Source: Escherichia coli (GTDB lineage: Bacteria > Pseudomonadota > Gammaproteobacteria > Enterobacterales > Enterobacteriaceae). From it: a stretch of 3,340 nucleotides of DNA. Where the stretch lies: the NCBI RefSeq assembly GCF_003334815.1, contig NZ_QOWO01000083.1. One strand, 5' to 3'. This document shows, piece after piece, positions 258 through 3,340 of the stretch. Position 1 is the stretch's first letter, and each line of letters starts with the position of its first letter. Made by a program: the position numbers and the translations under genes. Under the pieces are notes generated by a model. That model did no database searches. It saw nothing but the letters and a program-made list of their open reading frames with translations, and was not told the DNA's origin.

Positions 258-1793
258 ATGGCTACATCAGTACAGACAGGTAAAGCTAAGCAGCTCACAT
301 TACTTGGATTCTTTGCCATAACGGCATCGATGGTAATGGCTGTTTATGAATACCCTACCTTCGCAACATCGGGCTTTTCATTAGTCTTCTTCCTGCTATT
401 AGGCGGGATTTTATGGTTTATTCCCGTGGGACTTTGTGCTGCGGAAATGGCCACCGTCGACGGCTGGGAAGAAGGTGGTGTCTTCGCCTGGGTATCAAAT
501 ACTCTGGGGCCGAGATGGGGATTTGCAGCGATCTCATTTGGCTATCTGCAAATCGCCATTGGTTTTATTCCGATGCTCTATTTCGTGTTAGGGGCACTCT
601 CCTACATCCTGAAATGGCCAGCGCTGAATGAAGACCCCATTACCAAAACTATTGCAGCACTCATCATTCTTTGGGCGCTGGCATTAACGCAGTTTGGTGG
701 CACGAAATACACGGCGCGAATTGCTAAAGTTGGCTTCTTCGCCGGTATCCTGTTACCTGCATTTATTTTGATCGCATTAGCGGCTATTTATCTGCACTCC
801 GGTGCCCCCGTTGCTATCGAAATGGATTCGAAGACCTTCTTCCCTGACTTCTCTAAAGTGGGCACCCTGGTAGTATTTGTTGCCTTCATTTTGAGTTATA
901 TGGGCGTAGAAGCATCCGCAACCCACGTCAATGAAATGAGCAACCCAGGGCGCGACTATCCGTTGGCTATGTTACTGCTGATGGTGGCGGCAATCTGCTT
1001 AAGCTCTGTTGGTGGTTTGTCTATTGCGATGGTCATTCCGGGTAATGAAATCAACCTCTCCGCAGGGGTAATGCAAACCTTTACCGTTCTGATGTCCCAT
1101 GTGGCACCAGAAATTGAGTGGACGGTTCGCGTGATCTCCGCACTGCTGTTGCTGGGTGTTCTGGCGGAAATCGCCTCCTGGATTGTTGGTCCTTCTCGCG
1201 GGATGTATGTCACAGCGCAGAAAAACCTGCTGCCAGCGGCATTCGCTAAAATGAACAAAAATGGCGTACCGGTAACGCTGGTCATTTCGCAGCTGGTGAT
1301 TACGTCTATCGCGTTGATCATCCTCACCAATACCGGTGGCGGTAACAACATGTCCTTCCTGATCGCACTGGCGCTGACGGTGGTGATTTATCTGTGTGCT
1401 TATTTCATGCTGTTTATTGGCTACATTGTGTTGGTTCTTAAACATCCTGACTTAAAACGCACATTTAATATCCCTGGTGGTAAAGGGGTGAAACTGGTCG
1501 TGGCAATTGTCGGTCTGCTGACTTCAATTATGGCGTTTATTGTTTCCTTCCTGCCGCCGGATAACATCCAGGGTGATTCTACCGATATGTATGTTGAATT
1601 ACTGGTTGTTAGTTTCCTGGTGGTACTTGCCCTGCCCTTTATTCTCTATGCTGTTCATGATCGTAAAGGCAAAGCAAATACCGGCGTCACTCTGGAGCCA
1701 ATCAACAGTCAGAACGCACCAAAAGGTCACTTCTTCCTGCACCCGCGTGCACGTTCACCACACTATATTGTGATGAATGACAAGAAACACTAA
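258..1793 (+). CDS. gadC: Glutamate:gamma-aminobutyrate (GABA) antiporter, APC superfamily, acid-resistance system 2
   Basis: Uninterrupted 512-codon ORF (511 aa plus TAA) with a strong SD. The translation is highly hydrophobic with many predicted transmembrane segments. The N-terminus [22 protein letters not shown] and the His/basic-rich C-terminal tail ending [10 protein letters not shown] match my memory of E. coli GadC (XasA). Position directly after gadB fits the gadBC operon. Confidence 0.96.
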
Positions 1794-1817
1794 CCATGTC
1801 TGAATGGTTATAAGACA

Positions 1818-1846
1818 AGGGAGCGATAATTCATCGCTCCCTTTTT
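1818..1846 (+). terminator. Rho-independent terminator of the gadBC transcript
   Basis: Direct reading: 10-bp GC-rich stem AGGGAGCGAT (1818-1827) / ATCGCTCCCT (1833-1842), 5-nt loop AATTC, then a run of five T (1842-1846). It starts 25 nt after the gadC stop codon. Confidence 0.8.
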
Positions 1847-1862
1847 CGTGCTTGCTGTCGTA

Positions 1863-1891
1863 TTGACTTAACGGGGATAAGTACGAGAATG
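1863..1891 (+). promoter_or_regulatory. Candidate sigma70-type promoter for the downstream lipoprotein gene: -35 TTGACT (1863-1868), about 16-bp spacer, -10-like GAGAAT (1885-1890)
   Basis: Direct reading. The -35 matches consensus at 5 of 6 positions and the -10 at 4 of 6, including the conserved A2 and T6. It lies between the gadC terminator and the 1924 start codon. The -10 is weak, so this is speculative. Confidence 0.25.
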
Positions 1892-1923
1892 AGCGCACAT
1901 CTGTTTACCGGAAACCAGCACAT

Positions 1924-3243
1924 ATGGATATCTGCTCCCGAAACAAGAAATTAACGATTAGAAGACCAGCGATACTAGTTGCACTGGCACTTTTACTGTG
2001 TAGTTGTAAAAGCACGCCTCCAGAGTCCATGGTGACACCACCAGCAGGTTCAAAGCCACCAGCCACGACGCAACAATCGTCACAACCGATGCGTGGCATC
2101 TGGCTGGCCACGGTTTCTCGGCTCGACTGGCCACCGGTTTCCTCGGTTAACATTAGTAACCCCACCAGCCGGGCCCGTGTACAACAACAGGCGATGATCG
2201 ACAAACTGGATCATCTGCAACGTCTCGGCATAAACACGGTCTTTTTCCAGGTCAAGCCGGACGGTACCGCCCTGTGGCCATCGAAAATTTTGCCGTGGTC
2301 CGATCTTATGACCGGTAAGATTGGTGAAAATCCGGGTTACGATCCGCTGCAATTTATGCTCGACGAAGCCCACAAGCGTGGGATGAAAGTACACGCCTGG
2401 TTTAACCCCTATCGCGTATCGGTTAATACGAAGCCCGGTACTATCAGGGAACTGAATAGCACTCTGTCTCAACAACCGGCGAGCGTCTATGTGCAACACC
2501 GCGACTGGATCAGAACGTCTGGCGATCGCTTTGTCCTCGACCCGGGCATCCCTGAGGTTCAGGACTGGATCACATCAATAGTCGCAGAAGTGGTTTCCCG
2601 CTATCCCGTAGATGGCGTGCAGTTTGACGACTATTTCTATACGGAGTCACCGGGTTCACGGCTAAATGATAACGAAACGTACCGTAAATACGGAGGCGCA
2701 TTTGCGTCAAAAGCAGACTGGCGGCGCAACAATACTCAGCAGTTAATTGCAAAGGTATCGCACACCATTAAAAGCATTAAGCCGGGAGTCGAATTTGGTG
2801 TTAGCCCGGCAGGCGTGTGGCGTAACCGATCACACGATCCGCTCGGTTCCGATACCCGAGGCGCGGCAGCCTATGACGAATCCTACGCTGACACCCGTCG
2901 ATGGGTGGAACAAGGATTGCTGGATTACATTGCTCCCCAAATTTACTGGCCGTTCTCACGGAGTGCCGCGCGTTATGACGTGTTGGCAAAATGGTGGGCG
3001 GATGTCGTTAAACCGACCAGGACCCGCCTGTATATCGGTATCGCCTTCTATAAAGTGGGTGAACCTTCAAAGATAGAGCCAGACTGGATGATTAACGGCG
3101 GCGTACCGGAACTGAAAAAGCAGCTCGATCTTAACGATGCTGTGCCCGAAATTAGCGGCACCATCTTGTTCCGTGAGGACTATCTGAATAAACCGCAGAC
3201 TCAACAAGCGGTCAGCTATCTGCAAAGTCGCTGGGGCAGTTAA
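1924..3243 (+). CDS. digH: Outer-membrane lipoprotein with a glycoside-hydrolase-like family 10 (GHL10) domain; divisome-associated glycan hydrolase YddW/DigH
   Basis: Uninterrupted 440-codon ORF (439 aa plus TAA). The N-terminus has a basic n-region (SRNKKLTIRR), a hydrophobic core (PAILVALALLL), and a Cys-containing lipobox-like motif (LLCSC), followed by a Pro/Ser/Thr-rich linker. The rest is a soluble domain rich in aromatic and acidic residues, typical of a TIM-barrel glycosidase fold. Size and position next to gadC match E. coli yddW as I recall it. There is no in-frame start between the upstream stop (1864-1866) and ATG 1924, and none between 1924 and the lipobox, so the start is well constrained even though the SD is weak (GGAA about 10-13 nt upstream). 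Confidence 0.9.
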   Translation: MDICSRNKKLTIRRPAILVALALLLCSCKSTPPESMVTPPAGSKPPATTQQSSQPMRGIWLATVSRLDWPPVSSVNISNPTSRARVQQQAMIDKLDHLQRLGINTVFFQVKPDGTALWPSKILPWSDLMTGKIGENPGYDPLQFMLDEAHKRGMKVHAWFNPYRVSVNTKPGTIRELNSTLSQQPASVYVQHRDWIRTSGDRFVLDPGIPEVQDWITSIVAEVVSRYPVDGVQFDDYFYTESPGSRLNDNETYRKYGGAFASKADWRRNNTQQLIAKVSHTIKSIKPGVEFGVSPAGVWRNRSHDPLGSDTRGAAAYDESYADTRRWVEQGLLDYIAPQIYWPFSRSAARYDVLAKWWADVVKPTRTRLYIGIAFYKVGEPSKIEPDWMINGGVPELKKQLDLNDAVPEISGTILFREDYLNKPQTQQAVSYLQSRWGS

Positions 3244-3276
3244 ACTCCCATTCTTACTTTGTACTGATGAATCCCC

Positions 3277-3300
3277 TAATGATTTTTATCAAAATCATTA
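3277..3300. promoter_or_regulatory. Perfect AT-rich palindrome TAATGATTTT-N4-AAAATCATTA in the intergenic region downstream of digH
   Basis: Direct reading: 3277-3286 is the exact reverse complement of 3291-3300, with spacer TATC. It is too AT-rich and lacks a GC stem and T-run, so it is not a convincing intrinsic terminator; a dimeric regulator-binding site in the next gene's promoter region is more likely. By recalled synteny the next gene would be dosC, whose start is outside the window. Confidence 0.3.
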
Positions 3301-3340
3301 AGTTAAGGTAGATACACATCTTGTCATATGATCAAATGGT

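Follow-up and report, generated by a model that had tools for sequence, protein, structure and literature searches.

Orthologue comparison of the lipobox and N-terminal tether of the septal glycan hydrolase DigH of Escherichia coli

DigH and related systems

DigH (formerly YddW; UniProt P64426) is a divisome-localised glycosyl hydrolase of Escherichia coli that has been described as specific for denuded, that is peptide-free, septal glycans; it accumulates at midcell and the septum, its overproduction suppresses the chaining of tol-pal cells, and Prc is its negative regulator. The subject of this analysis is the N-terminus of that protein as encoded in a 3,340-base stretch of E. coli DNA (contig NZ_QOWO01000083.1), referred to below as the window, in which bases 1990-2088 (plus strand) translate to LLLCSCKSTPPESMVTPPAGSKPPATTQQSSQP, residues 23-55 of DigH. 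The lipoprotein signal and tether of DigH that lie in this segment are already known, and they are unremarkable except for a minor annotation conflict over which of two neighbouring cysteines is lipidated and a conserved stretch within the tether. We put the probability that it is the end of a Sec-type (signal peptidase II) lipoprotein signal together with the N-terminal tether of DigH at roughly 0.88, and comparison across enterobacterial orthologues makes it very likely that the lipidated residue is the second cysteine, Cys28.

Several described proteins resemble parts of DigH. The closest solved catalytic domain is that of Cwp19 of C. difficile (PDB 5oq2 and 5oq3), a Gram-positive cell-wall protein. 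Among the outer-membrane lipoproteins of cell-wall metabolism, MltA and MltB carry the lipobox LAAC followed by SSKP and EmtA carries LAGC followed by SSKH. RcsF, NlpD and Pal possess long disordered N-terminal linkers, and El Rayes et al., whose survey takes in YddW, reported that linkers of the class longer than 22 residues are needed for the efficient Lol-dependent sorting of these three proteins. MepS, which like DigH is a Prc-controlled outer-membrane lipoprotein that hydrolyses peptidoglycan, has a disordered N-terminal tether whose conserved hydrophobic residues bind the adaptor NlpI.

The 439-residue open reading frame (ORF) of the window is the digH coding sequence. Bases 1794-3263, digH included, match the K-12-derived strain E. 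coli EPI300 at 100% identity; the EPI300 record places the gene between gadC and dosC and annotates it as digH, “family 10 glycosylhydrolase” (WP_000350395.1), and the region is matched in 5,418 of 5,426 complete E. coli genomes (all but 8). The window’s protein therefore is E. coli DigH, with no protein difference, and the strain departs from the described locus in an IS10-type insertion 20 nucleotides past the digH stop codon. The ATG at 1924 is the earliest start codon downstream of an in-frame stop, and a reading of the codons ahead of the hydrophobic core gave no other in-frame ATG, GTG or TTG. A short earlier note, made from the letters of the window only, had called the product a GHL10 protein, and both profile and fold bear this out: the GHL10 profile (Pfam PF02638) aligns to residues 55-389 with E = 7.5e-136, over positions 1-310 of a 311-position model, and the sequence match to Cwp19 (5oq2) has E = 5.5e-100. 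AlphaFold2, run on a 106-sequence alignment, gave a model with a mean predicted local distance difference test score (pLDDT) of 91 (above 90 in the GHL10 domain) and a predicted template modelling score of 0.86, which Foldseek aligned to Cwp19 with E = 9.5e-47, a template modelling score of 0.94 and 43% identity. The Cwp19 alignment begins only at DigH residue 43, leaving the lipobox and the proximal tether without a counterpart in that protein. A scan of DigH against NCBIfam release 20 returned 0 families, though the RefSeq annotation names the gene digH.

The lipobox and its two cysteines

The N-terminus of DigH has the layout of a lipoprotein signal peptide, with a charged n-region followed by a hydrophobic h-region: residues 1-17 contain five Lys or Arg against one Asp or Glu, Kyte-Doolittle means over seven residues run from 2.5 to 3.4 across residues 18-25, AlphaFold2 places a helix at residues 15-26, and orthologues keep the hydrophobic core as A-x-A-L-L-L. 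The only cysteines of DigH are at positions 4, 26 and 28, the last two encoded by TGT at 1999-2001 and 2005-2007.

Taken by itself, the E. coli sequence is ambiguous between Cys26 and Cys28. The strict lipobox [LVI][ASTVI][GAS]C has no match in residues 1-60, at neither cysteine, in agreement with the earlier note’s remark that a lipoprotein-type signal here holds two cysteines in a non-textbook context; LCSC deviates from it only at -2 (Cys), and LLLC at both -2 and -1. A relaxed pattern of the PROSITE PS51257 type, with Gly, Ala or Ser at -1 and Cys permitted at -2, fits LVALALLLCSC ending at Cys28 alone. The reference set was taken from Table S1 of Rao et al. 2020 (PMC7139219), where each of the 114 predicted E. 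coli K-12 lipoproteins is entered with its lipobox and the four residues after it. In this set the -1 residue is Gly, Ala or Ser in 111 of 114 and Leu in none, and 12 residue types occur at the permissive -2 position. A log-odds matrix was trained on the 113 proteins other than YddW, for the lipobox alone and for positions -3 to +5, and it scored the Cys26 register (LLL-C-SCKS) at 1.96 bits and the Cys28 register (LCS-C-KSTP) at 1.46 bits.

It is the orthologues that separate the two residues. A search of 5.8 billion proteins yielded 120 close homologues of DigH (75-100% identity) with 84 distinct N-termini, drawn from Escherichia, Citrobacter, Pseudocitrobacter, Kosakonia, Cedecea, Lelliottia, Buttiauxella, Pectobacterium, Erwinia, Ewingella, Rahnella, Pantoea and Gibbsiella. 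A cysteine is aligned with Cys28 in 84 of the 84, and the position aligned with Cys26 is occupied by Ala (37), Val (34), Thr (4), Ser (3), Cys (2), Phe (2), Ile (1) and Gly (1), while the flanking positions are those of a conventional lipobox (Ser 74, Gly 8 and Asn 2 at -1; Leu 73 or Val 9 at -3). E. coli and E. fergusonii account for the two cysteines at -2, and no genus outside Escherichia has one there. The -2 codon is TGT in E. coli, TGC in E. fergusonii, TCC in Citrobacter and GTC or GCC elsewhere, such that the Citrobacter and Escherichia codons are related by a single-base change. Read in the Cys28 register, the orthologue consensus LAS-C-SSKP reaches 14 bits on the K-12 matrix, and in 103 of 104 full-length orthologues no cysteine follows that of the lipobox.

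Because Cys28 is invariant and position 26 is variable, Cys26 would be a residue at the tolerant -2 position that leaves with the signal peptide. The lipobox is thus very probably L25-C26-S27-C28, with Cys28 acylated and Cys26 lost on cleavage, and by the same alignment Cys26 is a lineage-specific substitution at -2 rather than a second lipidation site. The earlier note had considered the acylated cysteine unresolvable from the sequence, which is true of the E. coli protein in isolation but not of the 84 N-termini taken together.

Several observations weigh against the assignment of Cys28. Both registers score within the lowest 5% or so of K-12 lipoproteins, and the matrix cannot tell Cys26 from Cys28; among the 114 proteins YddW alone has Cys at -2, and it alone has Lys at +2, so that in both respects E. 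coli DigH is unlike MltA, MltB and EmtA. An experimental mature N-terminus of DigH was not found in the literature, the primary DigH paper (PMC7104345) lying outside the search, and a 2025 paper on DigH does not mention lipoprotein, lipobox or cysteine. Finally, a published model contradicts it: Table S1 of PMC7139219 gives the “Cys” of YddW as 26, and the atomistic model of YddW deposited in Data S1 of the same paper starts with triacyl-Cys, Ser, Cys, Lys, Ser, Thr, Pro, Pro, Glu, and therefore was built with Cys26 as the anchor.

Lipidation of Cys26, with LspA cutting between Leu25 and Cys26 to leave a mature start of Cys-Ser-Cys-Lys, would also place Ser at +2, the commonest +2 residue of K-12 lipoproteins (36 of 114), and it has the marginally higher naive matrix score. 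However, it demands the Leu at -1 for which the K-12 set offers no precedent. Lgt and LspA are known to require a small residue at -1. Every genus outside Escherichia lacks a cysteine at position 26, whereas Cys28 is never replaced; moreover, lipidation of Cys28 would leave mature DigH free of cysteine, and lipidation of Cys26 would leave a lone unpaired cysteine at +3 of an otherwise cysteine-free protein in the oxidising periplasm. The entry in Table S1 is also at odds with itself, because the lipobox and following residues that it lists for YddW, LCSC and KSTP, correspond to Cys28 (PMC7139219). We regard Cys26 as a very improbable anchor, and its lipidation in the published simulation resource as probably wrong; the UniProt feature table is probably the source of the “26”.

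About as improbable is a mixed outcome in which both cysteines are substrates, Lgt acting sometimes on Cys26 or on both, to give mixed or partly unprocessed molecules, and the -2 Cys tunes the maturation of DigH in Escherichia. Two thiols two residues apart at the membrane surface would lend themselves to this, the -2 Cys is peculiar to YddW among the K-12 lipoproteins, and it has been retained: at least 5,150 of the 5,426 E. coli genomes hold an exact word of at least 28 nucleotides spanning the two codons, and E. fergusonii has the residue as well. But such retention is equally expected of a neutral change at a tolerant position, and a Leu at -1, as Cys26 would have it, belongs to no recognised lipobox.

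That DigH is not a lipoprotein, and is instead a soluble periplasmic enzyme released by signal peptidase I (C-S-C, after which it might cut, formally meets the small-residue -3/-1 rule) or exported by the twin-arginine translocation (Tat) route through R13-R14, is the least credible of the alternatives, since orthologues have canonical lipoboxes (L-[AV]-[SG]-C), YddW/DigH has been listed and measured as an outer-membrane lipoprotein, the E. coli residues read T-I-R-R-P-A-I and do not match the Tat motif S/T-R-R-x-F-L-K, and the arginine pair is poorly conserved (KK in 28, KR in 9 and RR in only 2 unique orthologue N-termini), KK not being accepted by Tat. Signal peptidase I cleavage and Tat export were accordingly both rejected.

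With Cys28 as the anchor, maturation may be pictured as follows. The precursor would be inserted via Sec, Lgt would attach diacylglycerol to the Cys28 thiol, LspA would cut between Ser27 and Cys28, so that Cys26 and Cys4 depart with the signal peptide, and Lnt would N-acylate Cys28; Cys26 itself probably arose in the Escherichia lineage, where a Ser or Ala was replaced by Cys. Assigning Cys28 by comparison is new in a small way and at odds with one published model. It leaves the general picture of lipoprotein biogenesis unchanged, though the register of the mature N-terminus is relevant to construct design, lipoprotein catalogues and membrane simulations, and the case illustrates that scoring the lipobox of a single sequence may give no answer where a comparison of orthologues decides.

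Predicted outer-membrane sorting and the two-part tether

An Asp at +2 keeps lipoproteins in the inner membrane (the “+2 rule”). The residues at +2 and +3 of DigH are Lys-Ser when counted from Cys28 and Ser-Cys when counted from Cys26, so that Asp is absent from +2 in either register, as the earlier note had pointed out; orthologues have Ser or Ala at +2 and Ser at +3. With Lys-Ser and no Asp at these positions, sorting to the outer membrane by Lol is predicted, and since +2/+3 is not Asp, LolCDE, LolA and LolB would carry DigH to the inner leaflet of the outer membrane. The location itself is taken from the literature, where El Rayes et al. include YddW among E. coli outer-membrane lipoproteins with validated localisation and a membrane proteomics study quantified DigH as an outer-membrane lipoprotein; a direct fractionation or lipidation experiment on DigH was not found, again with PMC7104345 outside the search. 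In its Sec-type signal, lipobox cysteine and non-Asp +2/+3 residues DigH is like MltA, MltB and EmtA, and the Ser-rich +2/+3 of these proteins, with Lys or Pro soon after, recurs in the C-[SA]-S-K-P-P of DigH orthologues.

The residues that follow are, as the earlier note had it, rich in Pro, Ser and Thr. These three make up 58% of residues 29-54 against 20% of the remaining protein, and the enrichment is beyond chance because the binomial P is 3e-5 and no 26-residue window of the DigH domain exceeds 38%. AlphaFold2 assigns no secondary structure to residues 27-56, with pLDDT block means of 52-60 over residues 21-50, and begins the barrel at residue 57; the tether is thus predicted to be disordered, which is also what the note had proposed. 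It measures 26-27 residues in E. coli, and over all orthologues it ranges from 23 to 32 with a median of 29, so DigH has more than 22 unstructured residues between the lipidated cysteine and the globular domain, resembling in this respect RcsF, NlpD and Pal. Fully extended, 26 residues amount to some 8-9 nm. Mature DigH would then hang on a predicted disordered tether of about 26 residues (K29-Q54), reaching at most about 8-9 nm, which should be long enough for efficient handling by Lol and might allow the GHL10 domain of about 43 kDa to reach septal peptidoglycan.

The note’s further description of this segment as a low-complexity linker suits only its distal part. Henikoff-weighted column entropy averages 0.63 bits over residues 29-39, 2.10 bits over residues 40-54 and 0.41 bits over the GHL10 domain, meaning that the first 11 residues are conserved nearly to the level of the enzyme domain while the rest vary freely, with insertions and deletions. 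Pro at +6, Val at +10 and Thr at +11 are invariant in 84 of 84 N-termini. Every conserved residue of the proximal motif is encoded by two to four different codons over eight genera, and codon differences are 141 synonymous to 80 nonsynonymous in the motif, as against 50 to 182 in the last 10 codons of the distal tether. Given this synonymous turnover, selection acts on the peptide and not on the DNA; conservation at the DNA or RNA level is ruled out by the two to four synonymous codons per conserved residue, and Rfam gave no match to an RNA family anywhere in the window. By these alignments, the division of the tether into two parts and its conserved motif are likewise new in a small way.

What the proximal element does can be approached by analogy. 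For RcsF, linker length and disorder mattered and sequence did not, whereas the first 11 tether residues of DigH are under purifying selection. The precedent of MepS suggests that S-x-P-P-x-S-L-V-T-P (residues 30-39) might be a short linear docking motif and not a spacer, an idea that we consider doubtful; the DigH motif is short and Pro-flanked, whereas the MepS tether turns helical upon binding. Were it true, the partner recruited could be the NlpI/Prc degradation system, a component of Lol or a protein at the septum, and the abundance or placement of DigH could be controlled via its tether, which makes the motif a cheap lead on the control of this Prc-regulated, septum-localised enzyme. Intramolecular docking of the motif on the catalytic domain was also considered and is unsupported, the AlphaFold2 contacts being of low confidence in keeping with the pLDDT of this region.

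When 1.84 billion cluster representatives were searched exhaustively, 7,387 homologues of DigH came back, among which the enterobacterial DigH clade amounts to very few 50% clusters. Behind it come homologues of about 50% identity or below, for the most part long multi-domain proteins whose signal peptides are ordinary. A lipobox-like N-terminus is present in just 11 of the 150 top matches, four of the 11 being Escherichia or enterobacterial DigH, and among these 11 there were 0 carriers of the tether motif outside the enterobacterial DigH clade. As far as these matches go, the lipobox-plus-motif module is specific to that clade, and because it is so confined, distant homologues cannot extend the conservation test. 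The nearest GHL10 relatives beyond Enterobacterales are mostly very long secreted proteins with several domains, up to 2,692 residues in length and some with two or three GHL10 copies, and by this comparison the compact lipoprotein appears to be a derivative form peculiar to its clade.

Flanking elements and neighbourhood

Features of digH and its upstream region are collected in Table 1.

Table 1. Positions of features in the 3,340-base window
Feature	Position	Strand	Basis
gadC intrinsic terminator: 9-bp GC-rich stem, 5-nt loop, T5	1819..1846	+	sequence read and folding
Candidate sigma-70-like digH promoter: TTGACT, 16 nt, GAGAAT	1863..1890	+	consensus scan
digH (yddW) coding sequence, 439 aa	1924..3243	+	ORF, EPI300 identity, Pfam GHL10
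Signal-peptide n-region, M1-R14; positive charge from K8, K9, R13, R14	1924..1965	+	Lys/Arg count
Signal-peptide hydrophobic core, P15-L25	1966..1998	+	hydropathy, AlphaFold2 helix, conservation
Lipobox L25-C26-S27-C28; C26 (1999-2001) at -2, C28 (2005-2007) the probable lipidated +1; probable LspA cleavage S27/C28	1996..2007	+	orthologue conservation
Sorting positions +2/+3, K29 S30; no Asp, no Lol-avoidance signal	2008..2013	+	sequence read
Conserved proximal tether K29-P39; consensus [SA]-S-K-P-P-x-S-L-V-T-P, E. coli KSTPPESMVTP	2008..2040	+	column entropy
Variable distal tether P40-Q54, Pro/Gln/Ser/Thr-rich	2041..2085	+	entropy, indels, codon differences
GHL10 catalytic (TIM-barrel) domain	2086..3090	+	Pfam PF02638, AlphaFold2, Cwp19 match

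Upstream of digH the window holds the 3′ end of gadB (1-102) and gadC (258-1793; NCBIfam TIGR00910 equivalog, 1029.7 bits). The predicted gadC terminator has the stem GGGAGCGAT/ATCGCTCCC and the loop AATTC, with a folding energy of -18.8 kcal/mol (z = -4.75); as read from sequence and folding, it separates digH from the gadBC transcript. A consensus scan for promoters and terminators reported no terminator, missing this hairpin. The same scan gave one promoter-like match in 1700-3340, which agrees at 9 of 12 positions, no better than chance expectation, and which is therefore a weak candidate for the digH promoter. A 21-codon ORF, MSAHLFTGNQHIWISAPETRN, at 1889-1954 overlaps the digH start out of frame, and its ATG lies inside the -10 hexamer (1885-1890) of this promoter-like match.

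Downstream, the terminal 77 bases of the IS10-type element, beginning CTGATGAATCCCCTAATGATTTT, occupy 3264-3340. In the window’s strain the insertion parts digH from yddY and dosC, and the hairpin AACAAGCCGGTG...CACCGGCTTGTT that comes after digH in K-12-type strains is downstream of it. In the K-12-type locus, yddY, the gene of a 13-residue small protein (PMC6001520), is found between digH and dosC (4735-4776 of the compared locus L001). The same IS10-type end is present in 2,175 plasmids, and strain LCP30S3_I3 has independently acquired an “IS4-like element ISVsa5 family transposase” inserted 3 nucleotides past the digH stop.

The gene order 5′ of digH differs among genera. E. coli and E. 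fergusonii share the order gadB-gadC-digH-dosC-dosP, with gadB-gadC in the place of a gene of about 95 residues of the VF530 family (PF09905) that, in Citrobacter, Kosakonia and Pectobacterium, lies directly 5′ of digH on the same strand (2608-2895, 2706-2996 and 2708-2995 in the compared loci L003, L004 and L005, respectively). In two of these genera the gap between the VF530 gene and digH is only 4-5 nucleotides.

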